From positions 1 to 64,000 of the IMG/VR virus record IMGVR_UViG_3300005937_000006: a stretch of DNA of 64,000 bases; one strand, given 5' to 3'. The notes under the pieces are model-generated. The model did no database searches. It was not told the origin of the DNA and saw only the letters and a list, made by a program, of their open reading frames with translations. This DNA comes from a virus (Duplodnaviria > Caudoviricetes). Positions 1 to 18,900 of this stretch are shown here, piece by piece. The position numbers were made by a program, and so were the translations under genes. The number at the start of each line of letters is the position of its first letter. Position 1 is the first letter of the stretch.

Positions 1-822
1 CTGTCCAAGCTCCGCAGCCTGATGCGCGAGATCTGGACGGACGACGAGGCAGCAAACTTCTCGGCAGCGCTCCTGCGGAACCATGCGATCCCCGGTGTGA
101 TCATCGCGCCGGGCGATGATGACTCGGAGTTCAGCCAGGAAGACGCTGATGCGCTGAAGATCAAGTACATGGGCCAGTTCAGCGACGATGGTCGCGGCGA
201 GCCGATGGTTGTATCTGCGCCCATCAAGGTTGAGATGCTCTCGTTCTCCCCCGAGCAGATGAACCTTGTTGGGATGCGGCGTATTCCTGAGGAGCGCGTC
301 TCCGCGATCTACGGAGTGAACGCGATCGTTGCGGGCCTGGGTGTCGGCCTGGAGCACTCGACTTTTCGCAACTACTCCGAGGCGCGTGCCGCTGCGTACG
401 AGGAGTGCATCCTGCCGCTCCAGAAGCTGATCGCGGCTGAGTTGACGCGCTCACTCTTGCCGCTCTTTCCTGGTGCCGAAGACTTGCTGGTGCGCTTTGA
501 TGCATCCAAACTGTCGATCTTCCAGGAGAACGCGATGGTCCGGGCCAGGATGGCAAACATGCTGGTGACGGGCGGGTGGGTCACGGTCGGCGCTGGGATG
601 CGGCTCATCGGTATGCCAGCCGACGAATCTTATGACTACTACCTGCGGCGTCGGCAGCAGCGAGCCGTACTCCTAGAGGATGCCGCGACCGATCAGCCGG
701 AGGACAAGCCAGCGCTGCCGCCGGGCGTGCAGCCGACGCAGCCTACACAGGTACCGAACCCGCAGCAGGAAGAAGAGGCCCAGCAAGGTGGTGGGAAGCC
801 AGCGGCGGTGGCAGCAGCATGA
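1..822 (+). CDS. Phage portal protein, HK97 family (5' truncated by window)
   Basis: Frame open from base 1. Portal C-terminal motifs (NAIPGVII, ISAIYGV, TFRNYSEAR, ILPLQKLIAAELTRSLL, VRFD) and a Q/P-rich tail; lies upstream of protease and capsid. Confidence 0.88.
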   Translation: MSKLRSLMREIWTDDEAANFSAALLRNHAIPGVIIAPGDDDSEFSQEDADALKIKYMGQFSDDGRGEPMVVSAPIKVEMLSFSPEQMNLVGMRRIPEERVSAIYGVNAIVAGLGVGLEHSTFRNYSEARAAAYEECILPLQKLIAAELTRSLLPLFPGAEDLLVRFDASKLSIFQENAMVRARMANMLVTGGWVTVGAGMRLIGMPADESYDYYLRRRQQRAVLLEDAATDQPEDKPALPPGVQPTQPTQVPNPQQEEEAQQGGGKPAAVAAA

Positions 823-1163
823 GCTTACATTTCCGTGTCATTGAGGTGCCGCTCCATCTGGTTACAGACGTGCTACCAATCGAGTGCTACCTCTCGTCTG
901 ACGAGGAGTCGGAGCGCACGCCACACGAGCGTGTCTGGCTGGAGATGCGCCATGCGCAGGGGCGCATCCTGATCGTCACGCCGGAGCGCATGCATGCCGA
1001 ACCGATCTACGTGGCCCACTGCGTTTTCGATCAGTATGGGACATGGCATCTGACCTGGAAGGGACTGCGTAACCTCCCGTCGAAGGATGCCAAGCACATC
1101 GTGATCGAAGTGGATCGGCCCATAGGGCAAATGTCCCTGTACGAGGAGCCCGAGATGTGCTAG
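819..1163 (+). CDS. Hypothetical protein
   Basis: ATGA overlap with portal stop; no recognisable motif. Confidence 0.6.
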   Translation: MSLHFRVIEVPLHLVTDVLPIECYLSSDEESERTPHERVWLEMRHAQGRILIVTPERMHAEPIYVAHCVFDQYGTWHLTWKGLRNLPSKDAKHIVIEVDRPIGQMSLYEEPEMC

Positions 1164-1191
1164 ACTCGGGCTACCTGTAGCCCACCCCACC

Positions 1192-1232
1192 AGGACGGCG
1201 CGCGGACGAACCCCGCAGCGCCGTCCTTTTTT
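1192..1232 (+). terminator. Rho-independent terminator-like hairpin
   Basis: aggacggcgc/gcgccgtcct stem with inner gcgg/ccgc stem followed by T6; a second small hairpin gggcta-cctg-tagccc lies at 1168-1183. Confidence 0.7.
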
Positions 1233-1246
1233 GTTGAGGAGCCGAG

Positions 1247-2137
1247 ATGACGCGCACGATGAACGGAAAGACGCTCGAAGGTAAGCAACCTCGTAAGATC
1301 GTTCCGATCATCGACCTCAAGTCACTCGACAATCCCACTGGTGGTTTCTCTGGCTACGGGTCTGTCTTTGGCAACGTGGATTCCTATGACGATATCGTCG
1401 TCAAAGGCGCCTACACTGACACCCTACCGGACTTCCTGAAGAACGGCTTCGTCTCGGTCGGCCATATGTGGTCGGACTTGCCCGTTGCAACCTTCAAGGA
1501 TGCCTATCAGGATGACACGGGATTGTTCGTCACTGCCGAGTTCCACTCCGATGAGTACAGTCAGCGTGCTCGACTGGTCACAACGGAGCGGATCGAGCGC
1601 GGGAAGGGCGTTGGCCTGTCGGTAGGCTTCTCCATCAAGAAGGGCGGAGCGTCCTGGGCGATGGATGAACAGGGACAGCATACGGGCATCCGCTTGCTCA
1701 ACAGTCTGGACCTCTTCGAGGTTGCGCTCGTCAATATGCCGGCTAATCCGAAAACATGGGTCGATACGATCAAGAGTACAATACAGACTTGTGACGACCC
1801 TGCGTGCGGATGCCGACTCTCGGAATCTTCCCATGCTGGCTTGAAGTTCGCTGACCACGGTGAAGCGCTGCTTACAGAGCTTCGCGGGTTCACTCAGCGC
1901 GCCCAGGCGCTTGCTGCCAAGCGTGCAGAACAGCAGCGAACACTCAGTGAAGAGCACGTTGACCGGGTGACTGCACTCGCTACCGACCTACGATCCTGCG
2001 CAGATGTAGTTGAGGGACTACTGCTGAGTAAGGCCGTAGATACCGATAGCGAGACGCGCAACGCTGCCCTTCGTGAAATCGCTCGGTTCGAGATTCTGCG
2101 CGCTCAGACCCTGAGCGCTGCTGGAGCAACAGCATGA
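1247..2137 (+). CDS. HK97-family prohead (maturation) protease
   Basis: FSGYGSVFGNVDSYDDIVVKGAY, GLSVGF and LFEVALVNMPANP motifs; RBS gaggag; helical C-terminal extension. Confidence 0.93.
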   Translation: MTRTMNGKTLEGKQPRKIVPIIDLKSLDNPTGGFSGYGSVFGNVDSYDDIVVKGAYTDTLPDFLKNGFVSVGHMWSDLPVATFKDAYQDDTGLFVTAEFHSDEYSQRARLVTTERIERGKGVGLSVGFSIKKGGASWAMDEQGQHTGIRLLNSLDLFEVALVNMPANPKTWVDTIKSTIQTCDDPACGCRLSESSHAGLKFADHGEALLTELRGFTQRAQALAAKRAEQQRTLSEEHVDRVTALATDLRSCADVVEGLLLSKAVDTDSETRNAALREIARFEILRAQTLSAAGATA

Positions 2138-3453
2138 GTGTCACCCTGCTAAGCGAGAGCGAGGCAAAGGCTCGCTCTCTCGCAGATCTGAATGGCCTGC
2201 TCAAGTCACATGCAGACCATGTCAAGGATCTGATCGAGAAAGGCGGCGAAGCGCTCGATCTGAACGACGCGGAAGTCGTTGAGCTTCGCTCACACAATGA
2301 CCAGATGACGCTCCTGGGCAAGGCGCGCGACGACAAGATGGAACTGCTCAAGATCGGGCAGCGCGCCACCGAGGAGATCGCCGGACAGAAGGACGTGTCA
2401 CGAGTGCTGCCTCATCCGGCCGATGGCGGCACAGGTGGCAAGGGCGGCAGTTCGGCGCAGCGCACAGTGTTCAAGGGCATCGGCCAGCAGTTCATCGAGT
2501 CGGATGTCTTCAAGGGGTACCGACCGTCCGAGCGACGATCCCCGGCCATCGACCTGGATATTGGCGAGATCCTGTCGATGCGCTTCCAGGGGATTGAAGA
2601 GAAGACACTGATGGTGTCAACGGATGTTGCCGGGCTGATCCAGCCTGAAGCAATGTTCGGAGGACAGCCGCTGGAACTGCTCACACGTCGGCCGGTGGTT
2701 GCCGATCTCATTCCACAGGGTACGACGGGCTCGCCGTCGCTCCGGTACGTGGAAGAGACGCTGAACACCAACAATGCCGACTTCGTGGCCGAGGGCGGGA
2801 CCAAGCCTGAGTCCGCACTCCAGTTCGCGGATCGCACCGCGACTGTGCGGAAGATCGCGACGGTCCTTCCGGTGACGGACGAGTTGTTTGCCGATGCGCC
2901 GGCCATGCGCTCGTACACCGAGGCTCGGCTACGACTGTTCATGGCCCTGCGCGAGGAATCCTCGCTGGTGTCCGGGACCGGTGTTGGCCTGGAGTATTAC
3001 GGGCTGCTGAACGTGCCCGGCTCGCAGACCAAGGCCACGTCGAGCTACGGCGGCAACGTGCTGGACACGCTGTTCCAGGCGATGGTCGCCATTCAGGTGA
3101 ACTCGTTCCTGGAGCCGTCCGGCGCGATCATGAACCCGCTCGACTGGGCGGACATCATCACGCTCAAGACGGCAGATGGCGTGTACATCTGGGGCCAGCC
3201 AAATGCTGCGCCCGGCCCGCAGCGTGTCTGGGGGATGCCGGTGGTTTCCACCCCGGTGATGCCGCAGAACACCGCCGTCGTGGCTGCGTTCAACTCGGCC
3301 ATGCAGATCTTCCGCCGCGAGGGTGTCACCTTCTCGGTGTCCGATCAGCACAACGACTTCTTCATCACGAACAAGCTCATGCTTCGGGTCGAGGAGCGGC
3401 TGGCCTTCGTGATCTACCGCCCGAGCGGTGTGTGCATCGTCACTGGGGTGTAG
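2134..3453 (+). CDS. Major capsid protein, HK97 fold
   Basis: N-terminal coiled-coil delta domain; VAEGGTKPES, IMNPLDWADIITLKTADGVYIW, RVWGMPVV and RVEERLAFVIYRP motifs. Confidence 0.96.
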   Translation: MSVTLLSESEAKARSLADLNGLLKSHADHVKDLIEKGGEALDLNDAEVVELRSHNDQMTLLGKARDDKMELLKIGQRATEEIAGQKDVSRVLPHPADGGTGGKGGSSAQRTVFKGIGQQFIESDVFKGYRPSERRSPAIDLDIGEILSMRFQGIEEKTLMVSTDVAGLIQPEAMFGGQPLELLTRRPVVADLIPQGTTGSPSLRYVEETLNTNNADFVAEGGTKPESALQFADRTATVRKIATVLPVTDELFADAPAMRSYTEARLRLFMALREESSLVSGTGVGLEYYGLLNVPGSQTKATSSYGGNVLDTLFQAMVAIQVNSFLEPSGAIMNPLDWADIITLKTADGVYIWGQPNAAPGPQRVWGMPVVSTPVMPQNTAVVAAFNSAMQIFRREGVTFSVSDQHNDFFITNKLMLRVEERLAFVIYRPSGVCIVTGV

Positions 3454-3456
3454 TCC

Positions 3457-3942
3457 ATGAACTACGTTCCTCGAACCAACATGGTTCCCGGCAGCGTCTC
3501 TCGGGTGAGTACGATGCCGGGCGCTCCGGTCACAGGTACAGCCGAAGTCCAGACGCTGACGAACAGCCATACGTCCGGGACGTACCGACTCGACTTCGGT
3601 GGGGGTGTCACAGCGCCGCTGGCCTACAATGCAGCGGCGGCTGCAATCCAGACTGCGCTGATCAACCTGCCGAATATCCCGACCGGCGGCGTGGTCGTGT
3701 CCGGTACTCTCCCTACCATCACGATCACGTTCGCCGCTGAGCTTGCCACTGGGCTGCAACCGCTGATCAAGATTGCCAACTCGACAATGGCAGGCGGTGC
3801 GGCCAGCGTCGCACGAACAACGCCGGGGGTTGCCCCGACGTTGCAGGGCGCACCGAAGGGGGCGCTCGCCACACGTTCCGACACGGGCGTGCTGATGAGC
3901 AATACCGGCACCCCCACCGCCCCGGTGTGGACGCCGACATGA
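3457..3942 (+). CDS. Putative virion structural (decoration) protein
   Basis: Directly after capsid; Thr/Gly/Ala-rich with TYRLDFGG..TAPLAYNAAAAAIQTAL segment typical of phage virion proteins. Confidence 0.55.
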   Translation: MNYVPRTNMVPGSVSRVSTMPGAPVTGTAEVQTLTNSHTSGTYRLDFGGGVTAPLAYNAAAAAIQTALINLPNIPTGGVVVSGTLPTITITFAAELATGLQPLIKIANSTMAGGAASVARTTPGVAPTLQGAPKGALATRSDTGVLMSNTGTPTAPVWTPT

Positions 3943-4568
3943 TGAGGGAAGAGCGGCTCGCTGCACTCAACTGTTACGACTGCGGCGCGCCGTTCGTTCC
4001 TGAACGTGGACGGTTTGCCTGCGCATCGGAATCCGGGTCGGGACTCACCATTCTCACGGAGGAAGAGCAGATGGCAGGAGAGCAGGTTGCCCTGACACGT
4101 CGGGTGTACCTGGATGAAGGGAAGAGCCAGGCCCTTCCGGCTGAGCCGAAGGAAGATGGCCCTATCGCTGCATGGCTGTACGGCGCGGCTGGCGCGCTGA
4201 AGTCTCGACTTGAGGCCGAGGGGCTTGGGCTCAAGGAAGGCGAGGATTTCGAGGAGCCACAGAACGCACGCGAGGGGCTTGCGGCAGTAGATCGCCAGCG
4301 GCGTGCGGAGATGGCGCGTTCCGATGCCACGATGATCGAGCCGCTGCCGATCCAAACTTCTTCGACTCCTGAGCGGCGGGAGTTCGACCGGAAGACTGGC
4401 GGCGAACTGGCGATCGAAGAGGATGCGTCCTCGGTTGATCAGGCCGATGCAACGGTTACGACATCTGATGCCGGGCCAACTCCCGCAACATCAACGGCGC
4501 CAAAGGCGTCATCGATCAGCAGCCCGAACCCGATGCCAACAAGTGGAGGCGGCGCTACGCCGGCCTAA
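3939..4568 (+). CDS. Hypothetical head-associated protein with S/T/P-rich tail
   Basis: ATGA overlap at 3939 (alternative start 4071 with ggagga RBS); N-terminal CxxC; low-complexity C-terminus. Confidence 0.55.
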   Translation: MMREERLAALNCYDCGAPFVPERGRFACASESGSGLTILTEEEQMAGEQVALTRRVYLDEGKSQALPAEPKEDGPIAAWLYGAAGALKSRLEAEGLGLKEGEDFEEPQNAREGLAAVDRQRRAEMARSDATMIEPLPIQTSSTPERREFDRKTGGELAIEEDASSVDQADATVTTSDAGPTPATSTAPKASSISSPNPMPTSGGGATPA

Positions 4569-4569
4569 G

Positions 4570-5154
4570 ATGCCCCAGTATGTGACGCCCGCAGAGCTAG
4601 CTGCGCATCTCAACATGATGACTACGCCGAATCCGACGCAGACACAGATGTTGACTGATGCCATCGAAGCAGCTTCCAAGCAGATTGACGGGCTCTGCGG
4701 GCGCACATTCGAGGCGACCCCCGAAGTGCGGTACTTCACCGCGCTTACGCCAACGATTGTGGAGGTTGGGTATCCCTCTACGATCATTGCCATTGATCTG
4801 GATGACTTCAACGACTACAGCTACGGAACACCACTTGTCGATACCGACTATTTCCTGACCGATACGCGCGGGCGCCGCTACTTGCAACTGAAAAGCACAG
4901 CGTTTAGCACTTTGCCATTGACATTGAATGCCATCCGAATCAACGCGGTCTTTGGCGAGACGAGTGTACCGCCTGACATCAAGATGGCGACCAAGCTTCA
5001 GTCGGCACGCTTGTGGAAGCGTAAAGACGCGGTCTTTGGCGAGATCGCGGGCGAGGTTGGCTACATGCGCATCCGTGACTGGTTCGACATGGATGCCAGA
5101 GAGATCCTGAAGAATGGCGGCTGGATTGCTCCACGCCGACTGGTGATCTCCTGA
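4570..5154 (+). CDS. Head-tail connector (adaptor) protein
   Basis: YVTPAELAAHL, AIEAASKQIDGLCGRTF and VPPDIKMATKLQSARLWKRKDAVFG are adaptor-like; start reassigned from 4423 to 4570. Confidence 0.85.
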   Translation: MPQYVTPAELAAHLNMMTTPNPTQTQMLTDAIEAASKQIDGLCGRTFEATPEVRYFTALTPTIVEVGYPSTIIAIDLDDFNDYSYGTPLVDTDYFLTDTRGRRYLQLKSTAFSTLPLTLNAIRINAVFGETSVPPDIKMATKLQSARLWKRKDAVFGEIAGEVGYMRIRDWFDMDAREILKNGGWIAPRRLVIS

Positions 5155-5660
5155 TGCCCGCATTTGGCCCCGAAGGCTCGCTACGAGTTGAAGTCCAGGT
5201 CAACACCGGCGACATCGCTTCGCTACGGCGCAAGCTGCACGGATTGCCGACCGTGATCAACTCCAGCTTGATTCAGCGTGCACGCGACATGTCGAGCCAA
5301 GCAGTCACCGAACTGAACAGGAGTGCGCCGGTCGGTGAGGGTGATCCCTGGCGGCGAGGAAACCCGCCGTTGTCGCAGTCACATCATGCGCAGGTGATCA
5401 ATGCCTACTACGCGGTGGTCTGGAGCGAGGCGCCACATGCGCTGTTCATCGTGACTGGCTTCACGCCACACATGCCACCGGCCGAAGCATGGACAGGAGA
5501 GCCGCGCGAGGGCTACCCGAAGCGACTCGCAGTGCTTCGTAATCAGACGCCTCAAGCACCACGCGACTACTTCACACCTGTTGTGGATGGTATGGCGCGA
5601 TATAACGAACGGACACGCAACGACCTGGAGAAGCGCGTAGACGCGCAACTGAAGTCATGA
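5154..5660 (+). CDS. Neck protein (HK97 gp10-like)
   Basis: Position after adaptor; SAPVG..L..SHH, A.FIVTG..PH and PRDYFTP pattern. Confidence 0.65.
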   Translation: MPAFGPEGSLRVEVQVNTGDIASLRRKLHGLPTVINSSLIQRARDMSSQAVTELNRSAPVGEGDPWRRGNPPLSQSHHAQVINAYYAVVWSEAPHALFIVTGFTPHMPPAEAWTGEPREGYPKRLAVLRNQTPQAPRDYFTPVVDGMARYNERTRNDLEKRVDAQLKS

Positions 5661-6064
5661 ACCTGATGGACGTACGCGAAGCCATTGTAGCAATCCTGAT
5701 GGAAGGGCTCGGCGGTATGTGGCAGGGCTACCCCTACATGATTGATCAGTTCGCGGCCCCTGCGTTCTTCGTTGCCGATCCTATTGCCTGGGATTACTCC
5801 CGCACGATGGATCGAGGGGTGAGCGTCACGCTCCCGATTCGCTTTGCGCTTCCGCGCGCAGATGAGCAAAGCGCACAAGAGATGATTGCCGCGCTGATGT
5901 CTACTGATCCTGGTTCACCGTATGACATCCTCGATGCGAATGTCAGCCTGAATGACACGGTGGATTCATCGCGGGTTGCCAGGGCGGGCAGGATCGCTTC
6001 ATATCGCACTGGCGGCGGGGATCTCTACCTCGGCTTCGAGTTGGAACTGGAGATCGAAGCATGA
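5657..6064 (+). CDS. Tail terminator/completion protein
   Basis: 135 aa with typical size and position; ends YLGFELELEIEA. Confidence 0.7.
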   Translation: MNLMDVREAIVAILMEGLGGMWQGYPYMIDQFAAPAFFVADPIAWDYSRTMDRGVSVTLPIRFALPRADEQSAQEMIAALMSTDPGSPYDILDANVSLNDTVDSSRVARAGRIASYRTGGGDLYLGFELELEIEA

Positions 6065-6684
6065 TGTACACCGGCGAGCGGCTGGTTCCTGACCGGTTCG
6101 GTGTGGGCGAACGCATCATGATCGAGCACATCGACCGCTATCGGTTTGCCACGCAGGTGATCTCAACCTGGGGGCAAGGGACGAAGCATACGAACCAACT
6201 TGACATACTGGATGCGCCCTGTGGTGTTGGTTATGGTGCCGCACTACTTGGCGAGCAACTGCAAGCCACGGTTGTCGGCATTGATAACGATCAGCAGACA
6301 ATCGATCATGCCCGACGCTTCTACTACTCGATCCCGAAGATAGAATTCCATCGCTTCGATCTCGATGAAGACCAACTCGATATCGGCGCCTATGATGTCG
6401 TCGTGTGCTTCGAGGGCATCGAGCATGTGCAGAAGCAAGACGTGGTTGCCAGGAAGCTGTGCCGAAGCCTTCGTTCACCCGGACTGATTCTTGTGTCAAC
6501 GCCGCGACGTGATGGTCCCGGTGCAGGCTCGGCATTCCACACCCGAGAGCTTATGCGTGAGGAGTTGTACGGGCTCTTTGCGCCGTACCTTGTTGAAGCG
6601 CAGATGTACGGCCAGGACTTGCGAGTCGCAGATCGCGCAGCAGATGCCGATCCACGCTACTTCGTGCTCGTGGGCAAGGTATGA
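6061..6684 (+). CDS. Class I SAM-dependent methyltransferase (glycan-associated type)
   Basis: YTGERLVP..EHIDRYRFA N-terminus, ILDAPCGVGYG (motif I), YDVVVCFEGIEHV, GLILVSTP. Confidence 0.9.
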   Translation: MMYTGERLVPDRFGVGERIMIEHIDRYRFATQVISTWGQGTKHTNQLDILDAPCGVGYGAALLGEQLQATVVGIDNDQQTIDHARRFYYSIPKIEFHRFDLDEDQLDIGAYDVVVCFEGIEHVQKQDVVARKLCRSLRSPGLILVSTPRRDGPGAGSAFHTRELMREELYGLFAPYLVEAQMYGQDLRVADRAADADPRYFVLVGKV

Positions 6685-7853
6685 AACTGCTCGTAGTTCA
6701 GCCGGGTGCGTCATATTCCACGGCGGATGTCTTTGATGGGCTCATCCGTCAATGGCAGATGCTGGGACACGAGGTAGTGCGCTACAACCTTGATGCGCGT
6801 ATCTCCCGTGCTGATTCCTGGCTGAAATTCAACTACGAGAAGGCCACGCAAGAAGGCTTCGCCGTCGAGCAGCCGTCGATACAGGACACCACGTACCTCG
6901 CCTCGGCAGAAGCTGTCCTCATGGCACTTCGCCATCTCCCAGATTGGGTCGTCATCATCTCCGGGATGTATTTCCATCAGGATGCGATGATCATGCTCAA
7001 ACGGGCGCGTCAGAACGTCGCGCTCATCCTGACTGAGTCCCCCTACGATGACGAGCCACAGATGCGCGTGCTGCCGTACGCTGACATCGTCTTCGTCAAT
7101 GAGAAATACTCTGTCGAAGAGTTCTCGAAGGTACACCGTAAGGTGTTCTATCTTCCTCATGCGTACGACCCTTCAAAACATCTTCTTCTAGACGATGAAG
7201 AGGACGACGTGCCTGCCCATGATGTCGTCTTCGTCGGCACGGGATTCCGCGAGCGCATTGAGCTACTGGCTCAGATCGATTGGGAAGGGATAGACCTCGG
7301 CTTGTATGGCTCGTACGAACTGCTGGATGACATGCCTGACGCGGCTGAGCGATTACGACCTTTCATCAAAGGTGGCATTGTTGAGAATCGCCGGACGGCA
7401 TCCCTCTACCGAAAGGCGAAGATCGGCTTGAACTTCCATCGTACATCGAAGGGGTTCGGCCTGGATGTAGGGCACATCGCACAGGCGTATTCGTTGAATC
7501 CACGCATGTATGAGCTTGCGGCAAACGGATGCTTCGTGATCTCGGACTACCGTCCTGAGATCACCGATGTGTTTGGGGATCTAGTTCCAACCTTCTCGGG
7601 CGCGCGCGAAGCGGAGACGTTGATCCGTCGATGGCTGAGAGATGAGGACGGAAGACAAGCAGTCTCTTCCAAACTCCTTGACGCTGTCGCTCAGCACACC
7701 TTCACGGCGAGAGCCGCGCAGGTGTCGCGTACCCTGATGGCCGAAGGAGCACAAGAGTGGCACGGTATCATGGACGCAAAGGCACCGTCTACGTCTCCAC
7801 CTCGGGGACGGGTGATGCAAGCTCCGTTGTCTCTCTCAACGCCTGGACGCTAG
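6681..7853 (+). CDS. Glycosyltransferase, CgeB/YkvP-like (GT-B)
   Basis: LTESPYDD, YLPHAYDP, DVVFVGT..ERIELL, LYRKAKIGLNFHR and LNPRMYELAANGCFVISD motifs; last 97 nt overlap the tail tube gene. Confidence 0.88.
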   Translation: MKLLVVQPGASYSTADVFDGLIRQWQMLGHEVVRYNLDARISRADSWLKFNYEKATQEGFAVEQPSIQDTTYLASAEAVLMALRHLPDWVVIISGMYFHQDAMIMLKRARQNVALILTESPYDDEPQMRVLPYADIVFVNEKYSVEEFSKVHRKVFYLPHAYDPSKHLLLDDEEDDVPAHDVVFVGTGFRERIELLAQIDWEGIDLGLYGSYELLDDMPDAAERLRPFIKGGIVENRRTASLYRKAKIGLNFHRTSKGFGLDVGHIAQAYSLNPRMYELAANGCFVISDYRPEITDVFGDLVPTFSGAREAETLIRRWLRDEDGRQAVSSKLLDAVAQHTFTARAAQVSRTLMAEGAQEWHGIMDAKAPSTSPPRGRVMQAPLSLSTPGR

Positions 7854-8152
7854 ACCAGACGACCGACAAGACGGAGGTTACCTCGTTCCTTGACGCGAAC
7901 AAGGTCTACGTGCAGGGCCTGAAGGACGTGTCGGGTACCCTTGGTGGCTTCTGGGACGATTCCGAAGAGAAGCTGTTCCAGGCAGCGGACTCTGCGGACG
8001 GCAACAAGATGTATCTCTACCCGTCTGTGGATGCAGCCACGCGGTACTGGTACGGTCCGTCCTGGCTTGATGCGTCGATCAACGTTGGCGTGGGCGATGC
8101 CATCAGCATCTCCGCGAACTTCTCAGCCAACGGCTCGTGGGGACGCTACTAA
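7757..8152 (+). CDS. Major tail (tube) protein
   Basis: GTG start with gaaggag RBS; YHGRKGTVY..AWTLDQTTDKTEVTSFLDANKVYVQGLKDVSGTLGGFWD tail-tube pattern. Confidence 0.88.
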   Translation: MARYHGRKGTVYVSTSGTGDASSVVSLNAWTLDQTTDKTEVTSFLDANKVYVQGLKDVSGTLGGFWDDSEEKLFQAADSADGNKMYLYPSVDAATRYWYGPSWLDASINVGVGDAISISANFSANGSWGRY

Positions 8153-8220
8153 GCCTCGTCGGATGGGTTGTACTCAGCGTGGCACTTCGCTACGCTGAGT
8201 ACATCCTGCTGTGCTGAGGC
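8153..8220 (+). other. Stem-loop after tail tube gene
   Basis: 12-bp perfect IR tgtactcagcgt (8169-8180)/acgctgagtaca (8192-8203) with outer gcctc/gaggc; no U-tract. Confidence 0.6.
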
Positions 8221-8226
8221 GGCGTT

Positions 8227-8532
8227 ATGCCAAACGCCTTGCGCGTTGAAGGCAATTCGGGAGCACTCCTGGTTGGCGGCAAGTGGATGGGGCAGCTCCT
8301 TCACTGGAAGATGGAGCAGATCGGAGGAGGACGCTACGCCTTCGAGGCAGACCGAGTACAGCTTGACGAGGTGTACTGGCCGTTTCGCGACCGTAACGCG
8401 CCGGTAACCGTTGAGCTACTCTTTCGACGTTCCACGATGCGGTTCCGTGTTATGCTCAGCAACGAGTCGCCTCTAAGCGGGGAGGCGACCCTCGACGCCA
8501 ACGTGGCAGAGGAACAAGGGGGGTTCTGGTGA
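8227..8532 (+). CDS. Hypothetical tail-region protein
   Basis: Between tail tube and chaperone; overlaps next start. Confidence 0.6.
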   Translation: MPNALRVEGNSGALLVGGKWMGQLLHWKMEQIGGGRYAFEADRVQLDEVYWPFRDRNAPVTVELLFRRSTMRFRVMLSNESPLSGEATLDANVAEEQGGFW

Positions 8533-9122
8533 CATCACCAGTGTCAGGCACCGTTCTACGCTCTGACCGAGCGATGGTCGATACCGATTATGTCGATCTG
8601 TTTGCCAGCGACGAACTGGTGCCGTTCCCGATCCCTGACACGCCGTTTACCTGCATGCTGCTGCGCGAGTTGGACTGGGGTGACCAGCAAGAGCTAGAAG
8701 CCGCTGCACTGCGCGGACTTCAGCGTGCCGACCTCGAAGCAGCCATCGCTGGCAATTCGACGCTCCTGCTTGACATCAGCCGGCAGCGCTTCCTGACGCT
8801 GGCGTTGCGCATCAAGAAGTGGAACGTCACGCGCCGCGACGCCTCGACGGGCGAACTGCGCCCGGTCCGTCTCCCTGAGCACGTCCAGGAGCGGATCATG
8901 GTCATGAAGAAGCTTCGCCCCAAGTGGGCGCGAGCGATCCTCACGAAGATTGAGGAGCTTGACCGCGAGAACAACGAGGCTGAGCCAGACATGCCGCAAC
9001 TGATTGCGCCGCAGCCTGACGAGGATCGGGAACCCCCAAAAGCTACGCAGAATGGCGTCATCGAAGGGCAGAGCGTAATGTCGTCCTCTGCAAGTTCATG
9101 GGTTGGTCCTACCGGGAATTGA
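8529..9122 (+). CDS. Tail assembly chaperone (G-like)
   Basis: Position before TMP; contains slippery heptamer C CCA AAA at 9035-9041. Confidence 0.8.
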   Translation: MTSPVSGTVLRSDRAMVDTDYVDLFASDELVPFPIPDTPFTCMLLRELDWGDQQELEAAALRGLQRADLEAAIAGNSTLLLDISRQRFLTLALRIKKWNVTRRDASTGELRPVRLPEHVQERIMVMKKLRPKWARAILTKIEELDRENNEAEPDMPQLIAPQPDEDREPPKATQNGVIEGQSVMSSSASSWVGPTGN

Positions 9123-9211
9123 TGGAGACGCCTACGTCGGTGGTGAAGGCAATCCTTCGCTCGATGGTTGAGGCGTCCAATGACGCGCAGCTACGCGCGA
9201 TGATGCGATGA
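9035..9211 (+). other. Programmed -1 frameshift extension (GT-like product 8529-9211)
   Basis: The -1 frame reads PKSYAEWRHRRAERNVVLCKFMGWSYRELMETPTSVVKAILRSMVEASNDAQLRAMMR*; its TGA overlaps the next ATG (9208). Confidence 0.85.
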
Positions 9212-9426
9212 CGGACATACGAGTGTGGTGCTCTACCTGTGGCGAGTCGTTCGGCCTGATGGGAAGCGAGAAGCAGGCCGAGATCATCGACGCTCATTAC
9301 CAGACGTGCACGGCATACCTGCACGGCGAAGGGCTGAAGAAAGAGCGACCCATCGCGTTCTCGACGGCGACGGAAGAAGAGGTGAGCAATGGCAGTGCTT
9401 ACCAGCCGAGGTCGCAAGCGTCTTAG
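9208..9426 (+). CDS. Small Zn-binding hypothetical protein
   Basis: CSTCG...H...C motif; ATGA coupling. Confidence 0.6.
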   Translation: MTDIRVWCSTCGESFGLMGSEKQAEIIDAHYQTCTAYLHGEGLKKERPIAFSTATEEEVSNGSAYQPRSQAS

Positions 9427-9619
9427 TTCGGGTAAGTTTGCGCTTCCTGGCAGGCGCTATCCGATACATGACAGAGCACATGCCAGAAATGCTCTCGCCA
9501 GAGTTGCGCAGCACGGTACGGCCAGCGAGAAAGCCAGGGTACGCGCGGCGGTCAAACGTCGTTTCCCTAGCATCGGTAAGAGCAAGAAGAGCACATCGCG
9601 GCGGAAGAGGAAGCGCTAG
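9389..9619 (+). CDS. Small, very basic protein
   Basis: RBS gagg; FALPGRRYPIHDRAHARNALARVAQHG core; K/R-rich tail. Confidence 0.75.
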   Translation: MAVLTSRGRKRLSSGKFALPGRRYPIHDRAHARNALARVAQHGTASEKARVRAAVKRRFPSIGKSKKSTSRRKRKR

Positions 9620-9894
9620 AACACGCGGCCCTCTCGTCGCCAGTGACAAATACGGCAGACCGAGATAAGGTTCGAGAGACGATTGGCGACTTTGTAGTCG
9701 CCATTGAACGAACGATACGGAATGAGATGATGCACGTCGAGACGGGGCTGATACTGGACCCGCCCACAGTCTCGGCACGTGTACTTGTCCCGCTTCCGTG
9801 CCGCGTCTGCCTGTCGCTGCCAGTTCGGCCCTCGATCAACGGGCTTGAAGCGAGCGTATTTCCGTCGCCGCTTACGCCGGGTCTTCGTGACCAT
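9616..9894 (-). CDS. HNH endonuclease (antisense to tail operon)
   Basis: RDKYTCRDCG..LDVHHLIP..NRLSNLISVCRICH HNH/Zn signature. Confidence 0.88.
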   Translation of the reverse strand: MVTKTRRKRRRKYARFKPVDRGPNWQRQADAARKRDKYTCRDCGRVQYQPRLDVHHLIPYRSFNGDYKVANRLSNLISVCRICHWRREGRVF

Positions 9895-9900
9895 AAGCCA

Positions 9901-9929
9901 TTTCTAGCACGGTTGGACCGTGCGTGCAA
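9901..9929 (-). promoter_or_regulatory. Putative leaderless promoter of HNH gene with palindromic spacer
   Basis: TTGCAC-N17-TAGAAA (TG extended) 6 nt before ATG; the spacer is the IR gcacggt-cca-accgtgc. Confidence 0.45.
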
Positions 9930-9937
9930 GAGCCACG

Positions 9938-12900
9938 ATGGCTAGCATCAGCACTGCCGAGCTTCGCATCCTGATCACCGCGCAGGACTACGCTTCGGCG
10001 CAGCTTGCTCGAACCGTGTCGGGGTTCAATAGCCTTGCACAAAAGGCAACCATGACCGGGTCGCAGATGACGCGGGCATTCACGCTGCCTGCGGGCGTCA
10101 TCGGCGGCAGCATCATCAAGGAAGCTGCCGACTTCGAGCAGACCCTGGACGTGCTGGTCAACACGACACGCGAGGCTGGCAACAATGTGCAGGATGCCGC
10201 CAATGGCTTCGGTGATGCTGAAACGCGCATGGCAGCGTTCCGTAAAGAAGCCCTGGCACTCGGCGCCGACCTGAACATCCCGGCTACATCGGCATCGGAT
10301 GCGGCACGGGCAATGGATGAGCTTGCCAAGGCGGGACTCAGTGCTACACAGGTGCTGGCTGCGGCAAGAGGTACGGTCCAGCTTGCCGCAGCAATGAACG
10401 TCGATGAAGCCAAAGCCGCGGACCTGATGTCAGCGGCGCTCAAAGCGTTCAGGCTTCCTGGCGAAGATGCGGTGCGCGTCACGAACATGATCGCGCGTGC
10501 CACCGAAGTCTCGCGCGCGAAGTTCGATGACTTCGCCATTGGCATTCGCCAGGGTGCTGCGGCTTTCGCTGTGACGGGGCGTCCGCTCGAAGAGTTCCTG
10601 GGGATGATCGGCATCCTGGTGGACCGAGGCGTCTCCGGCGGTGTGGCAGCCACGAGTCTGCGTCGTGCCGTTTCGGCTGTCGCGGCGCCAACCGCGAAAG
10701 CGACGGCCACGATGGAGAAGTATGGCGTCTCGCTCTTCGATGCAGAAGGGAAGATGAAGTCGTGGCCTGACATCATCGATCACCTGAGTGAGAGCTTCAA
10801 GGATCTCAACCCGCAGGAAACGTTCGCGGCCATCAAGAACATCTTCGGGCAGGAGGGATTCAAGTCCATTGCGCCGCTGATCGAGTTTAGTCGGCAGCAA
10901 AAGGAAGCGATGGATGAACTCAATGCATCCTTTGAAGCCGGTGAGATCAGTCAGGAAGAGTACGCGGCTGCGCAAGCACGTCTTGCCGAACAGGGCAAGA
11001 AGACCACTGATGAGTTACGCGCGAACATCGAGAGTATCAAAAACTCCGATGCCGCTGCCAAGATCACCGAGGCTCGCACGAAAGGGCTGAACGGCGCCAT
11101 CGACGGACTTGTCTCGTCGTTCCAGACGATGGCAATCGTTATCGGTACGCCGTTCCTGCAACGGCTCAACAACTTAGCAAGAGGCTTTGCTGAGCTTATC
11201 ACCAAATTCGGTGAGTTCATGTCCGCAAACCCACGGCTGCTGGAGTTTGTGGCGACCTTCGGCACAGTCATTGCGGCTGTTGGCCCGGCCCTATTGATCT
11301 TCGGGCGACTGCTCACGCTCATCGGCGCGCTTGCCACACCGTTTGGACTGGCAACTGCGGCTATCGCAACGTTCGCCGCCGCGTGGTCGATCAACCTAGG
11401 TAACGTCCAGGGGATCACGCACGACGCGCTTGGCGGCGTTGTCAAGATCATGGCTGGCCTTGGCGAGCGTTTGCGCGAGTGGGGCGCAGAGAACGAGCCG
11501 CTTGGCGAAATGATCGGGAAAGTCCTCTCAGGAATCGGCGGCATTGCACAGGGATTCCAATTCGCTATTCAAGGCAATATGGAAGCAGCCAAGAAAGCAT
11601 GGTCCGATGCACTTGGTGACTTTGGTAAAGCAGGCGAAATCGCACTACAACAAGTTGATCAGTTCGTCGGTGGCATCCTGGATAAGATCGGGGAGCTTAC
11701 CGGGATTGATGTCAGCGGCGCAACCACCGCGATTGACAAGCTTGCCACGCTGCTGGGGATTGACACGTCAGACTCGGTCGATGGGCTCACGCGGCTGTGG
11801 CAGATCCTCGATCGACTCGGGCAGCTTTCTCTCGGCGGGCTGACAACCATCTGGAACACGCTGAAGGAGCTAGGTTCGCTGACTTTTAGCGGGCTGGATA
11901 AGTTCCTGGACTTCAGCGCGAAGTTGTCGGGCATGACTTTCTCGGCTCCTGACCTTAGTCCGTTCGACAAGTTCAAGGAGCTTGCGCTGGCCGATTTCGG
12001 GCCTCTGGTTGATCTGCTTGCACGACTACAGCGGTTCACGTTCTCGGCGCCAGATCTCTCCACGCTTGACAAGCTCAAGGAGCTTGGTGAGTTCAACTGG
12101 AACGAACTGAAGGACTTCTTCAACAACCTTATGGTGGCGCTCCCTAAACTGAATATCCCCGGGGACTTCGCCAGGGCGCTAGAGAACATCCGCGTGGCGT
12201 TGGAGGGGATTGCCGACCTTCTCAGCAGCAAGCCGATCCAGTGGGAGAAAGCAACACCGCCACCCGATGCCGGGCAGCGTGCGCGACAGTATGCGGCTGA
12301 CCTGAAGTTCCTCTCTGCCACACTGGTGACGACAACGGGCGCATTTGCTGAGTCCATCAACATGGTCCGTGGTTTTGTGATCATGGCGGATTCGTTGATG
12401 CGGGTGCTGCCACTACTCGGACAAGCAGCCAAGGATGTCCTCACGGGCACCGAGCGAGTTGGCGCTGATAGCCCGCTGTTCCAGGCTCGCGAGATCATGC
12501 AAGAATCGAACCGGCAACTCGCTGAGCTTGGCTCGCAGAATGACGCAGCCAAGAAGCGCACGCAGGATGCCTGGGACGAATACTTCAACTTCATCAAACA
12601 GGGTGGCATCGACACGGCCAATGAGGTCGCCGCTGCGCAGCAGAAGACCACCCAGGCTGTGGACGGCACGTCCGAAGCGGTCAAAGCAGCGACGGTAGAC
12701 CTGGGCGAGTCGTTCGCGGATATTCCTGCGCAGACCGATGAGATGGCGACAGCCATTGAGCAGGGATTGGCGCCGATCCCTGCGGCGGTCACCGATACGC
12801 TCGATCCTGTTGCGCAACAGGTCACCGAGGTATCGGCAGAAGCCGCGCAGGCAATGGTCGATCAGCTTGCGTCGTTGCCTGCGAATGTCAGCCAAGCGAC

Positions 12901-15900
12901 GGGCGACATCATTACGACCATCGATCAAGTGCAGCCGCAAGCTCAAGAGTCAGGTACCGGCCTTGGGCAAGCGGTGATCGACGGTATTAGTGCAGCGTTG
13001 TCGTTGACAGCAACGCCAGCATTTGCCGAAGAACTACCTACACAGATTCAGGCCGTCGAAGCCCCTGCGCACGAGGCCGGGACGGCTGTTGGTACGGCAG
13101 TCGTCACCGGGCTGGAAGAAGGTGTCAAGCCAGCCGACACCGCGCTAGCACCGCTCTCCACATCCGTCGAGCAGTCGATGAACACGACGCTGGCAACGGT
13201 ACAGTCGAGCGGTGCGCAGATCATCGCATCGTTCACAACGACGTTCCAGCAGATCGTGGCTGCGGTGACGGCTGCGATGGCCCAGGTGACTGCAACGATC
13301 ACTACGTCAGCCCAGCAGCAGGTTGCTGCGATGCAGGCGGCGGGTGCGCAGATCCTGGCGTCGGCTCAGGCGACATGGCAGGCGATCCTGGCGTCTGCAA
13401 CCAGTACGTGGGCGACGATCACGCAGACGGTCGTTACGAGCGCGAACCAGACCCAGGCTGCGGTGGTCGCGGCTGGGCAGCAGATGACCGTCGCCATCAA
13501 CGCGGCCGGCAATTCGATGATCGCAGCCATGAGCAACGCGATGAGCGGCATGGTGAGCGCAGCAACGAGCGGGATCGCCCAGGTAATCAGCGCGGTGTCA
13601 GGGCAGGCTGCGGCGGCAGCGTCGGCGGGCGCATCCATCGGTAACTCGATCGCGAGCGGCCTGTCAAGCGCGATCCAGGCTGGTGCTGCACGGGCTGCGA
13701 GCGCGGCGGCTGCTGCCGTCAACGCGGCGATCAGCGCGGCGCGCGCGGCAGCGGACGCCCACTCGCCGTCGCGCAAGATGACCCAGCTTGGTACTGACAT
13801 GATCGACGGGCTCGCCAACGCGCTCTCGCAGGGGCAGTCGCGGGTGGCTGATGCCGTCAAGATCATCATCAAAGAGGCCCTGGCCGCGAACATCGACCCG
13901 ATGGTCGCGCTCGCGCTTGCCAAAGCTGAGTCCTCGTTGAACGCGCGCGCGCGCGGGGATTCCGGGCACTCGGTCGGCCTGTTTCAGCTACATGACGCGG
14001 GCCAGGGCGCCGGGATGTCGGTTGCTGCGCGCGAAGACCCTACAACGAACGCGCGAAAGTTCCTTCAGTCGCACTCGCAGTTGTTTGCACAACTGAAGGG
14101 ACAGATCAAAGACACCACCGAGCTAGTGCGCCAGTTCGGTGTGGCAGCGGAGCAGCCAGCCGATCAGACCGGTGCGGCGTACGTGGCGGCGTACCAGCAG
14201 ATTCAGCAGCAGATCCGTGATGCTGGCGGCTCGATTGCGGACTTGGTTGACAACCAGGATGCATTCAACACGGCGCTGGGCGAATCCGTCGATACCACTG
14301 CATCACTGACGCCACTGCTAGAACGACAACTCGCCCTCAAGGAGCAATCTGCTGCGCTCGACGTAAAGATGCTGGCAGGGCAACAGAACCTTGAGCGCAT
14401 CAACAGAGCTATTCAGCAGGTTGAAGAAGGCAGCATTGAACAGCGGCTAGCAGCGATGCAGGGCAGTCGCCAGGACAATGCGTACCTTCAGCAGGAGTTG
14501 CAACTCAAACTACAACTGCTCAAGGCCCAGCGCGATGCAGGGGTAGATTCCAAGGGCAAGCCGAGAGAGACGCAGGAGATTGCCGACATCAAGGCCGCGC
14601 TTGATCTCCTGAAGGATCAGCGCGAAGAGATCTCGCTCAATGCGGCGCTAACCAAGGCTGAGAACGAAGCGCGTTCGATGGGGCTCAAGGAGCAAGCATT
14701 GCTCCAGGGCGAAGCGCTGCGTCCACTCCAGAATCAGCAATTCCTACTCCAGCAGCAACTGGCACAGATCGACGCGCTCAATGCGGCGTGGCAAGCGGCG
14801 CAAGCGACGATCCAGAACAACAACAGCGCTGAGACGGCTGCGCGCCGCGAAGTCATCGCGACGATGCGCGAGCAAGCGGGGGCGAATACCAACATCGTCT
14901 CTGCTGGTCAGGCTGCGCTCACCGAGATGCGCAACTCGGGCAGGATCACCCAGCAAGAGTTCGAGCGCTACATGGGCATCCTGCAACAGTTCGGGCAGGT
15001 TGCCGTTGCATCGACCAATCAGGCTGCAACAGGCATCACGACGATTGCGACCGCATCGACGAATGCGCAGACAGCGATCGTCAACACTGGCGCCGCGCTG
15101 ACAACCACCGGGCAAGAGATGCAAGCTGTTGGGCAGGCCGGCGCGCAAGCAGGGCAGGTGTTGGCGACGAATGCCACGCAAGGGCTGACACAGTTCGCCA
15201 ATGAAGCGGCGGTTGCGGCGCAGAATGCCGTCAACTCGGTGATCAACGTCCTGCTGAACAGCGGTGGCGCAGCCTATGAGGCTGGGCGTACACTGGGCAA
15301 TAACGTTGGCGCTGGCCTGACTGATGGCATCGTAGAATCGGGCAACGCTGCCATCGACGCAGCGATTCAGGTTGCCAATGCGGTGATCGAAGCGATGCGC
15401 GGCCCGCAGGGCTTCGATGCGCACTCTCCTGCCCGTAAGTCGTACTTCATCGGTCAGGACGTGATGGCGGGCCTCATCAAGGGGCTCAACGATCCGACCA
15501 TCGGTGAGGATGTCAAGAAGCGCATTCAGCAGTACATCGACATGGCCGAGCGGTATCGCAAGCTGATCCCCGAGGCCATCGACAACGAGATGCGCATCAT
15601 CGAGACGCGCATCGATCAGGCCAAGGCGCTTCTTGGCATCCTCGACCTTGAGATGCGCATGAAAGAGGCTCAGCGTGCCGCCGAGGATGCGCGACGTGGA
15701 AGCCTCACCGATCAGATCAGGCTCCTGGACATTGAGCGCGACAAAAACGAGTTGCGACTCAAGGAGCTTGACCATGCCAAGAAGCTGACCGCAGCCCAGC
15801 GCGACGTTGAAGCAACCGAGCGGGCAATCCAGGAGATTGTGGAAGGCACGCTCGCGGAGCGCATCGCAGCGCTACAAGTTGAGCAGCAGCAGAACATCCT

Positions 15901-18900
15901 GAAGCGTCAACAGCTTGTGCTCCAGCAGCAGATGGCTGTTCTGAGCGCAGCGGTGCATAAAACTGAGCGCGAGATCCAGGAGACGCAGGATGGCTCGATT
16001 GCCACACAGGAGCATCTGCTCGATCTCGACTATCAGCGCGGGCTGATCCGTCAGCAAGAGTTGATGCATGCCAATGAACTGTTGGACGCCCAGAATGCTG
16101 TGGCCGATACCGAGCGGATTATTCGTGATCTGGAACGCGGCACACTGGCCGAGCGACAGGCCGAGATCACGCTCGACCATAAGAAGAATCTGCTCTCCAA
16201 GGAGCGCATTCAGATCGAGGCGCGCCTGCGGCAGATTCACGAGGCGGGCATCGCCAAGGACATCGCCGCGTTCTCGGGCCAGGGCTTGCAGGTTGTTGAT
16301 CCGTCCGACGCCACGCAGCAAGAAGTCAACGCGCTCCACAACCGACTGGCGGTCATCGAGGATCAGAACGAACTCCTGACCGACGAGGGCGAGATTCGTC
16401 GGCTCAATGGGCAGATCGCATCCTATGAGTATCGGCTCCAGCTTGAGGCGCAGCGTGATTCGGTTGATGTACTCGAACATCAAAACGAACTGCTCGAACG
16501 CCAGAGTCAGCGACTCCAAAATGAGAGCGAACTAGTCAAGCTCAACGGCGAGCTAGCTTCGCACTACTTGCAGGTGCGGCTGCTCCATGAGCAGGCTGCG
16601 CTCAAGACGTTGCAGGATCAGATCGACGCCATCGAAGCGCAGAACGATGCGCTCGATCTTGCTGCGCAGCTTCGTGCTGTTGATGCCGCTATCGCATCGA
16701 ATGCGCTGAAGATCCAGCTTGAGCAGCAGAAGGAAGCGCTGAAGGTACTCGAACAGCAGCAGCAAGTTTACGACGACCAGAACCAGGCACTCGATGAGGA
16801 AGCCGAGCGCATCCGCATCAACAACGAGCTTCGCGCCCATCAGTACGCAGTGGAAGCGGTCGTCCTGGAAGATGAGCATCGCCAGCAGCAGCGCATCATT
16901 GACGATCTGGATCGTCAATACGAAGCGCTCAACCGCCAGAAGCAGGTGTACGATGCAATTCTCCGTGCGGTTGACTACTTGCATGACCATCTACTGGACA
17001 TCGGCATTCTGGAAGACCCCTTCGCACAGCCGACGCACGAGCCTACGCCGCATGAAACGCCCGGTGGCAGCGGAGGTGGGCGATCAGGCGGCTCAGCGGG
17101 TGGTGCCGCTCGTGCGGGCGGTGCGGTGGCTGCGGCGGGTGAAGCCATTGGCAAGTCGATGAAGGATGCCGGGGCAGAAACCGAGAAGTTCGTCGGGAAT
17201 GCCCAGGCTGCATTGGCTCGCCTCAAGCCGGTCGTAACCGATGCTGCAACCACGGCAACAACCGCACTGGCTGGCACAGCAACAGCCGGGCATCAGATCG
17301 CCATTGAACTGGGCGACATCGGGAGCCGCGATTTCAAGGTGAATGTGGATGGCACGACCATTCGCGAAGCCCAGACGACCGCTGGCTACTTGATGGACAC
17401 GACTGGCGAGCTTGCCTCACAGACGTACGACATCAAAGTCAACGACCAGACCGTGCGCGTCTCCGGCGAGCAAGCCATCGCACTGCGCGAGTCCATCGAA
17501 GGGGTGGCTGATCCCGTTTCACTGAACGTCAACGGTCAGCAAGTCACGCTGACTGGGGCCGAGGTTGCCATACTCCGCGATCAACTAGCGTACGTCAACA
17601 GCGAACGGGTGACCCTATCGGTCGAGGATCAGGCCGTCAAGGATGCCGAGATGGGTGTCTCGCTGGTGACTGATGCGATCACCACGCTAGATGGCACTAC
17701 GGCTGCGCCAGCGGTTGTGCCCGAGGTAGACACCGCGCCTATCGAAGAGATGGTCACGGAGGCAGAAACCGAGCGCGTGATGGCGGTCGCCTCCGAGGTT
17801 GACACCGCTGCCGTCGATGATGTGGTGGCTGTCGTGGAGGCCGACCATACGCTGGCTGCTGCCACCGAAGTAGATACTGCTGCGGTCGATACGACCATAG
17901 CAACGATCACCGACGATCACACGCTGCCATCTACGACGACGGTTGATACCGCAGCGGTTGACTCTACGCTGGCGACGGTGGAAGCAAATCACGATCTACC
18001 GGCCACGACGGTGGTGGATCGAGCCACGCTCGACACTGCGGTGACGGTGGCAACGACGAACCATCCGATGCCGATGAACACCGTCGTGACTCAGGATACG
18101 ATGAACACGACGATCTCCACGGCGGCGACCGTGCATCCGGTCAACATGAATACCGTGGTGACTCAGGAGACGCTGGATGCGGCCATTGCGCTGGGTGAAG
18201 AACCCCACCCGCTGAACATGAACACCGTCGTCGTGCTGACCGAAATGGAAGCTGCGATCACCGAAGCTGACGCCCAGCATCCGCTCAACATGGAAACCAT
18301 CGTCGTACTGGATGAGATGGAGGCAGCCATTGCCGAGGCTGTTGCTCAGCATCCGCTCAACATGGAAACCATCGTCGTACTGGATGAGATGGAAGCTGCC
18401 ATTTCTGAGGCTGATGCACAACATCCGCTGAACATGGAGACGGTCGTCGTCCTCGAAGAGATGCAGGCCGCCATCGACGAAGCGGCAGCAGACCATGATC
18501 TCAACATCACAACGGTAGTCGAGCGAGCCGACCTCGACACCGCCATCGAAGACGTGGAAGCCGGCTATGATCTGGCAATTACCACACAGGTTGAACGCGG
18601 CGATCTTGACTCTGCCATCTCGGATGCCGAGAAAAGCTACGACCTTGCCGTCAAAGTCAAGGTTGAGGATGACGATCTCCAAGATGTGCTGGACGATCTT
18701 GATGAAGACCAGGAACTGAGCGTTGCCATCAAGATGGAGCGCGACGAGCTAGACGATGTCCTGGAAGAGATCAAGAAGAAGCACACCATGAAGGTCGAGG
18801 TTGAGAAGACCGGTGGCGGCGGGGAAGGCGAGGGTCATGCCACCGGCGGTGTGGTGCAGAGCGGTCGCGCTATCACCGTGGGTGAGTTTGGTCGCGAGAC

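Follow-up and report, generated by a model that had tools for sequence, protein, structure and literature searches.

To our knowledge, a few mycobacteriophages are the only phages in which glycosylation of virion proteins by enzymes that the phage encodes has been shown. According to published accounts, the cluster O mycobacteriophages (including Corndog) carry an O-methyltransferase gene followed by three tandem glycosyltransferase (GT) genes whose products modify the capsid and the tail tube (PMC11600133, PMC12619734), the mycobacteriophage glycans sit on the C-termini of the subunits (PMC12619734), and Che8 and Myrna are further glycosylating mycobacteriophages (Freeman et al. 2023, as related in PMC11600133, PMC12619734 and PMC12363180). 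Here we describe a two-enzyme cassette in a virus of the Caudoviricetes, IMG/VR record IMGVR_UViG_3300005937_000006, which is a complete, 72,966-bp phage genome bounded by direct terminal repeats; its first 64,000 nucleotides are the stretch analysed and are called the window below. The cassette consists of a gene for a class I S-adenosylmethionine (SAM)-dependent methyltransferase (bp 6061–6684) and a gene for a CgeB-type GT (bp 6681–7853), and it lies between the tail terminator gene and the gene for the major tail (tube) protein (bp 7757–8152), all on the + strand. The GT gene proves to be the constant upstream neighbor of this tube family across a large group of viruses, and on balance we favor the view that the pair is a late-operon cassette that glycosylates a virion protein, in which the tube would most likely accept the sugar and the methyltransferase would modify that sugar further.

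The Corndog genes were checked for comparison; gp35 is a TylF/Methyltransf_24 protein, gp37 is GT2-like and gp38 is GT25-like (both GT-A), and they lie between the portal and protease genes. In both phages methyltransferase and GT genes are present within a virion structural operon, and some relatives of the window locus use TylF-like Methyltransf_24 and GT2 enzymes, as Corndog does. The window, however, has a UbiG-like, PF13489-type methyltransferase and a single GT-B enzyme of family PF13524, placed between terminator and tube; its GT is linked specifically to the tube gene, and its tube protein has no C-terminal acceptor tail. An earlier reading made from the sequence alone (the sequence-only reading) had suggested that a methyltransferase paired with a CgeB-type GT might be an undescribed variant. 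The pairing as such is not new, since an O-methyltransferase with GTs is reported for the cluster O phages (PMC11600133), but the cassette described here differs in its enzyme families and in being firmly tied to the tube gene. Literature searches on PF13524/CgeB proteins in phages and on GTs with major tail proteins turned up no account of a tail-tube gene to which a PF13524 GT is locked.

Linkage of the glycosyltransferase and tube genes

Relatives of the window GT are numerous: a pattern scan found them encoded on 484 IMG/VR contigs, and 1877 are present in a large protein collection, mostly 350–380 amino acids (aa) long and ∼50% identical, with some of them fused to a methyltransferase domain. 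Such methyltransferase–GT fusion proteins also come from Chloroflexota metagenome-assembled genomes (MAGs; P0035). The loci fetched for gene-order comparison are the best 80 of each of two scans, one anchored on the GT and one on the tube protein, and not the full sets; the GT-anchored set comprises 89 loci (80 viral and 9 from MAGs). Genes in these related loci were called as a simple chain of longest open reading frames (ORFs), so that the lengths of N-termini, and any "fusions" of moderate size, are only approximate.

A tube homolog is the next gene downstream of the GT in 82 of the 89 GT-anchored loci. These homologs are 26–95% identical to the window tube protein (mostly 45–65%), and the gap between the two genes has a median of 17 nt, with 72 of the 82 pairs lying within 100 nt of one another or overlapping. 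The tube-anchored search, which found 226 contigs, gave the same result from the other direction, and the GT gene is directly upstream in all 75 newly fetched loci. With more than 150 independent viral loci showing it, this arrangement is far beyond chance. The capsids encoded at the GT–tube loci belong to different families (phrog_10, phrog_3990, phrog_4523, which is a protease–capsid fusion, and others without assignment), so that the head modules vary while GT and tube stay together; thus, the GT travels with the tube and not with the head. These sequence comparisons indicate that the common ancestor of a large uncultured clade already had the GT–tube pair.

Cultured relatives are few. Among cultured phages, a tube homolog is detectable only in DSL-LC06 and Synechococcus phage S-H1 (both ∼27% identical) and in CRP-701 (37%, partial), and no GT gene lies beside the tube homolog in DSL-LC06 or S-H1, the two that were examined. 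A tblastn search with the GT against 50,697 deposited phage genomes found no match, nor was one found with the DNA of bp 5000–9000, and the methyltransferase had one weak match in the same genomes. One GT–tube locus (L081) lies in CAVSNU010000005.1, a 1.35-Mb contig of a Chloroflexia MAG, and is presumably a prophage; it gives a lead to the hosts of some members of the clade, which as a whole has uncultured hosts that are probably not mycobacteria.

The glycosyltransferase

The GT protein (390 aa) matches the PF13524 profile (Glyco_trans_1_2; E 2e-18, 67.1 bits against a cut-off of 25), with residues 194–348 on profile positions 4–142 of 144. An AlphaFold2 model made with a 26-sequence alignment (predicted local distance difference test score (pLDDT) 90, predicted template modeling score 0.85) has two Rossmann domains in a folded core of residues 1–363, and residues 364–390 have pLDDT values below 50. 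In the VIA comparison its best neighbors are PimA (Z 26.5, 318 residues aligned), GlgM (Z 26.0) and BshA (Z 25.9), aligned over ∼320 residues at a root-mean-square deviation (rmsd) of 3.0–3.5, and WaaG is also among the top structural neighbors; Foldseek gave E values of ∼1e-12 for HepE, BshA and MshA, and 6e-11 for PimA. The GT family profile matched no PDB sequence.

The likeness to retaining GT4-type GT-B enzymes (PimA 2gej, BshA 6n1x, HepE 4xso) covers the two-Rossmann fold and ∼320 residues at Z 24.5–26.5 and rmsd 3.0–3.6, with MshA (3c4q) aligning worse (Z 20.0, rmsd 10.1), but identity is only 11–15%, and of the E-x7-E motif only the second Glu (E278) is evident in the window protein. 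The GT4-type enzymes compared (PimA, BshA, MshA and HepE) use lipid or small-molecule acceptors. The C-terminal Rossmann domain fits the PF13524 model, as in Bacillus subtilis CgeB/YkvP; however, the N-terminal DUF3880 domain of CgeB proper was undetected in the window GT (a single relative, L034, has a weak sub-threshold match), and the gene lies in a phage tail operon and not in a spore-coat locus. The best viral structural matches are CgeB/YkvP-like GTs of giant viruses (Yasminevirus and Hokovirus; BFVD models; E 3e-15 to 1e-14, TM 0.62–0.67), but these are proteins of eukaryotic viruses, often multidomain, that have no link to tails. Protein O-glycosyltransferases share the fold as well (Gtf3, Z 21.0; SdgB, Z 18.2). 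In the flagellin transferase FlmG (PMC7591256), SRRP Gtf3 (3rhz) and SdgB (7ec1), a soluble GT-B enzyme O-glycosylates a polymerizing or surface protein of bacteria in the cytoplasm, ahead of export or assembly, which is the kind of role considered here; the window GT differs in having no TPR or other recognizable substrate-docking domain, and the likeness is one of fold, with the acceptor here being a proposed one.

Since so many of these neighbors act on glycans or lipids, it could be argued that the GT and the methyltransferase alter a host surface or precursor glycan late in infection (against re-adsorption to lysing cells, or for exclusion of competitors), and that their position beside the tube gene is inherited synteny. 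PF13524 and GT4-like enzymes do mostly use lipid, sugar or polysaccharide acceptors, the top neighbors being PimA, BshA, WaaG and HepE, and the GT2, DegT and methyltransferase genes that accompany the GT in various loci (below) are typical of polysaccharide clusters. The linkage of GT and tube is nevertheless strict in both directions while head modules exchange, the GT is soluble with no membrane-anchor domain recognized by Pfam or in the model, Pfam scans of the genome found no flippase, polymerase or Gtr-type genes, and the cassette has no link to lysogeny or early modules. We consider modification of the host envelope unlikely.

A second kind of acceptor is suggested by the T4 enzymes. The window GT has the fold of T4 alpha-glucosyltransferase (Z 23.0), T4 beta-glucosyltransferase (Z 18.3) and a GT of phage HY126 (Z 18.6), and it might, as the T4 enzymes do, glycosylate modified bases of the phage DNA as a protection against restriction. 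However, a thymidylate-synthase-type hydroxymethylase (PF00303) was not found when the complete genome was searched in all six frames with positive controls that worked, no other base-modification genes were found with Pfam, and the GT gene lies in the tail module, not in the replication module, where it is linked to the tube family. With neither a hydroxymethylase nor base-modification genes, DNA glycosylation of the T4 type would have no substrate pathway in this phage, and we regard it as extremely improbable.

Among 26 GT homologs at ∼50% identity, 47 alignment columns are invariant, including the motifs T-E-S-P-Y, H-D-V-V-F-V-G and N-P-R-x-x-E, and this conservation fits an active enzyme. 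It bears on a further alternative, in which the protein serves the tube family as a chaperone or assembly factor without catalysis and its sugar chemistry is vestigial. Its fixed place before the tube gene, a frequent site of tail assembly factors, would agree with such a role, but both Rossmann domains contain invariant polar and charged residues (those of N-P-R-x-x-E and T-E-S-P-Y among them), and tailoring enzymes that look active adjoin the GT or are fused to it in most loci. A purely structural role is accordingly very improbable in our judgment.

The methyltransferase and the variable upstream position

The methyltransferase (207 aa) matches Methyltransf_23/25/11 (E 1e-13 to 6e-12, over the curated cut-offs), and five Methyltransf families pass in Pfam. 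Its SAM motif I (D-A-P-C-G-V-G-Y-G) is intact, with D51, G55, G57 and G59 and the strand-2 acidic residue D75 invariant. The N-terminal motif that had drawn attention in the sequence-only reading is present (T-G-E-R-L-V-P ... E-H-I-D-R-Y-R-F-A), with P10, H23, R26 and Y27 invariant across the family, and that reading was also right about DNA methylation, as no N6, N4 or C5 DNA-methyltransferase family in Pfam, NCBIfam or PHROGs was matched by the bp 6061–6684 product. The structures closest to its AlphaFold2 model (pLDDT 92.5) are UbiG, AtmM (a RebM-like sugar O-methyltransferase), MitM and GNMT, and Foldseek E values are ∼1e-11 to UbiG and 3l8d. Profile matches and model together point to a class I SAM-dependent enzyme of the small-molecule or sugar type (UbiG/RebM-like), and for both cassette enzymes the profile and structure searches agree with the identities first proposed.

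The methyltransferase gene occupies a position that varies among the loci, here called the "tailoring" slot. Accessory genes within 3 kb upstream of the GT were counted in 93 nonredundant loci with at least 1.5 kb of upstream sequence; a class I methyltransferase is present in 52 of these loci, a GT2 enzyme in 28, a radical-SAM/SPASM enzyme in 12, a TylF-like Methyltransf_24 protein in four and a DegT-type sugar aminotransferase in one, and Pfam confirmed examples of every type. In 14 of the 93 no accessory gene was recognized, and several of these loci have GT ORFs of 500–650 aa with unexplained N-terminal extensions. The window methyltransferase belongs to a different subfamily from the common GT-adjacent one, and the two are not orthologous, with similarity only in ∼40 residues around motif IV. 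The pairing of methyltransferase and GT has therefore arisen repeatedly, sometimes as a fusion, and this repeated pairing argues that both enzymes act in one pathway.

A methyltransferase beside a tail gene could also modify protein directly, on Lys, Arg or carboxyl groups of the tube, in which case the tail would be modified by two enzymes acting independently, the GT and the methyltransferase. Methylation of a tail protein by a host enzyme is reported to matter for mycobacteriophage infectivity (PMC13445384). Class I methyltransferases of similar size include protein methyltransferases, a lysine methyltransferase (8hkr) is a weak match to the window enzyme, and Lys49 of the tube is near-invariant. 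On the other hand, the best structural neighbors (UbiG, AtmM, MitM) are small-molecule or sugar methyltransferases, the fusion of methyltransferases to GTs and their occurrence alongside GT2 and DegT enzymes point to a single glycan pathway, and the presence of non-orthologous methyltransferases in the slot, with none in 41 of the 93 loci, is the pattern of optional tailoring. We think direct protein methylation by an independent enzyme quite unlikely, and we put transfer of the methyl group to a sugar rather than to protein at slightly less than an even chance.

The radical-SAM/SPASM loci include L003 (bp 6615–7997), L002, L035, L057 and L063; a 69-aa ORF lies between the radical-SAM enzyme and the GT in L002 and L003, and the substrate of this enzyme could be a sugar, a peptide or a protein. 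The head modules of L052 (at bp 2925–4232) and L059 encode a further protein, of 435 aa, that has a methyltransferase match (phrog_8156).

Overlap of the glycosyltransferase and tube genes

All 107 unique tube homologs start with an M-A-R-Y-H-G-type N-terminus, which fixes the start of the window tube gene at the GTG codon at bp 7757. The GT gene ends with a TAG codon at bp 7851–7853; thus, the 97-nt overlap of the two genes in different reading frames (bp 7757–7853), part of the sequence-only reading, is real. The Shine-Dalgarno sequence of the tube gene (GAAGGAG, bp 7743–7749, 7-nt spacing to the GTG) lies within the coding sequence of the GT. The GT of most relatives ends before the tube start; in the window lineage it extends 32 codons into the tube gene, read in a different frame. 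Comparison with an 86%-identical relative (L001) shows eight nucleotide differences in the overlap, six of them at tube codon position 3, and these change two residues of the tube but six of 31 in the GT tail. That the changes fall mostly at tube third positions indicates selection on the tube frame. The GT tail in the overlap is a lineage-specific C-terminal read-through that is disordered in the model and drifting.

Two other explanations of the overlap were rejected. A functional C-terminal extension of the GT does not agree with a tail that is disordered in the model and evolves at synonymous sites of the tube gene. The second, recent insertion or horizontal acquisition of the cassette, follows from the original impression that the GT gene sits as if inserted in front of the ribosome-binding site of the tube gene. 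The GC content (0.56–0.57) and third-position GC content (0.63–0.64) of both enzyme genes are the same as those of the adjacent terminator and adaptor genes, and the GT–tube pair is conserved across the clade at 45–65% protein identity, so this part of the earlier interpretation was given up.

In four loci of a second lineage (L009, L012, L013 and L014; GT ∼50% identical), simple ORF calls also give a GT–tube overlap, of ∼98 nt. The extension of the GT into the tube gene may therefore have more than one origin.

The candidate acceptor and the proposed pathway

The tube protein (131 aa) matches phrog_10528, aligned over residues 2–128, and phrog_9522, and comparison with PDB sequences gave nothing meaningful. 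It has no decoration domain, and the whole clade builds long tails from this minimal subunit. The conserved hydroxyl positions, which would be the candidate sites in the proposed acceptor, are T42, S79, S107 and T31; T42 is also Thr in outgroup tubes that have no GT. The tape measure proteins of relatives are ∼1000–2100 aa long versus 3072 aa in the window.

In the pathway that we propose, the cassette would be expressed late, cotranscribed with the neck and tail genes, and the soluble GT-B enzyme would take a host-made nucleotide sugar and, in the cytoplasm, attach the sugar to a virion protein, most likely the 131-aa tube subunit, before or during tail polymerization. The methyltransferase would then methylate that sugar or its activated precursor. 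Across the clade, the GT would be the fixed "priming" enzyme and the upstream slot a swappable tailoring position that diversifies the glycan. Virion glycosylation had been put forward in the sequence-only reading, and it is still the reading that fits best; the tight GT–tube linkage found in the synteny survey and the glycan-type tailoring enzymes in the slot (GT2, DegT and TylF-like Methyltransf_24) strengthen it. It is probable that the acceptor is a virion protein of some kind, and that it is the tube itself comes close to an even chance but falls short of it.

Several points weigh against virion glycosylation or against the tube as its target. The fold of the GT as modeled cannot tell the class of acceptor, as T4 DNA alpha-glucosyltransferase scores near the top (Z 23.0, with Z 26.5 the highest). 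The conserved adjacency may be historical, as the structural modules of phages are strongly syntenic, and it shows that the GT is retained and not what it acts on. The analogy with Corndog is functional only, gp35–38 not being homologous to the window enzymes, and the tube C-terminus is W-G-R-Y, with no Ser/Thr tail like the C-terminal acceptor sites of the mycobacteriophages.

The head-tail operon and the rest of the genome

By its ORFs and their Pfam and PHROG matches, the + strand head-tail operon spans bp 1–19138. It includes the prohead protease and HK97-type capsid (bp 2134–3453; PF05065), a head-tail adaptor (bp 4423–5154) and the tail terminator (135 aa, bp 5657–6064; phrog_17840, E 1.4e-5); in relatives the protein in the terminator position matches PF12691 and PF11367. 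The terminator stop overlaps the methyltransferase start in an ATGA (bp 6061–6064), and a second ATGA joins the methyltransferase to the GT (bp 6681–6684), so that ORFs, sequence and profile matches confirm two chained enzyme genes between terminator and tube. No promoter or terminator signal above shuffled expectation was found inside the enzyme block, and its assignment to the late head-tail operon holds.

Directly 3′ of the tube stop codon lies a strong RNA hairpin (bp 8153–8220, + strand) with a perfect core of 15 bp and a minimum free energy of -44.7 kcal/mol (z -5.5; none of 200 shuffled sequences was as stable). It is probably a transcript-end, stabilizing or attenuating element that closes the enzyme–tube unit before the chaperone genes. 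Downstream of the tube gene are two small genes and then the gene for the 3072-aa tape measure protein (bp 9920–19138).

The remainder of the complete record (72 further ORFs, Pfam) encodes tail fibers, beta-helix spikes, helicases, ParB, primase, terminase, portal and a C5 DNA-methylase-like ORF. Genes for a second glycosyltransferase, for nucleotide-sugar synthesis or for base hypermodification were not found among these ORFs; as the phage has no nucleotide-sugar genes, its GT must draw on nucleotide sugars of the host. The C5 match is partial, covering profile positions 57–114 of 324 in a 234-aa ORF on the - strand (bp 34227–34931), the 3′ part of which overlaps a predicted tRNA-Ser(GCT) on the same strand (bp 34344–34436). 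The methylase may be truncated here; alternatively, either the methylase call or the tRNA call may be spurious.

Implications for phage tails and for the CgeB family

What is new here is a strict, enzyme–substrate-like linkage of a GT to a tube protein that is spread over hundreds of contigs. In the boldest form of the proposal, which we offer tentatively and think somewhat less likely than not to hold in full, the GT would be an obligate tube-specific protein glycosyltransferase of a clade of long-tailed phages numbering hundreds of contigs; every 131-aa subunit, present in several hundred copies along a tail whose length a tape measure of 1000–3072 aa sets, would be sugar-coated, with the coat replacing immunoglobulin-like decoration domains and the slot diversifying the glycan as an arms-race surface.

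The locus also affects how viral contigs are annotated. Relatives of the GT often carry the JGI label "spore maturation protein CgeB", and in one virome study a viral CgeB is taken for an auxiliary gene of sporulation (PMC13317609). Within this clade, genes labeled in this way on viral contigs belong to the tail module and are not sporulation auxiliary genes, and the sporulation reading may be a misinterpretation where the clade is concerned.

The 390-aa GT and the 131-aa tube protein make a clean, testable candidate enzyme–substrate pair, and the variable slot would let the diversification of a phage surface glycan be studied. If the tube or another virion protein is indeed modified, the PF13524 "CgeB" family would for the first time have a role in protein O-glycosylation, and virion glycosylation would be widespread in environmental phages, well beyond those of the actinobacteria, carried out by an enzyme of a different fold that is locked to one tube family. 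Sugar-coated tails could then influence adsorption, particle stability, antibody recognition, and the sensing of the tube by bacterial defenses.

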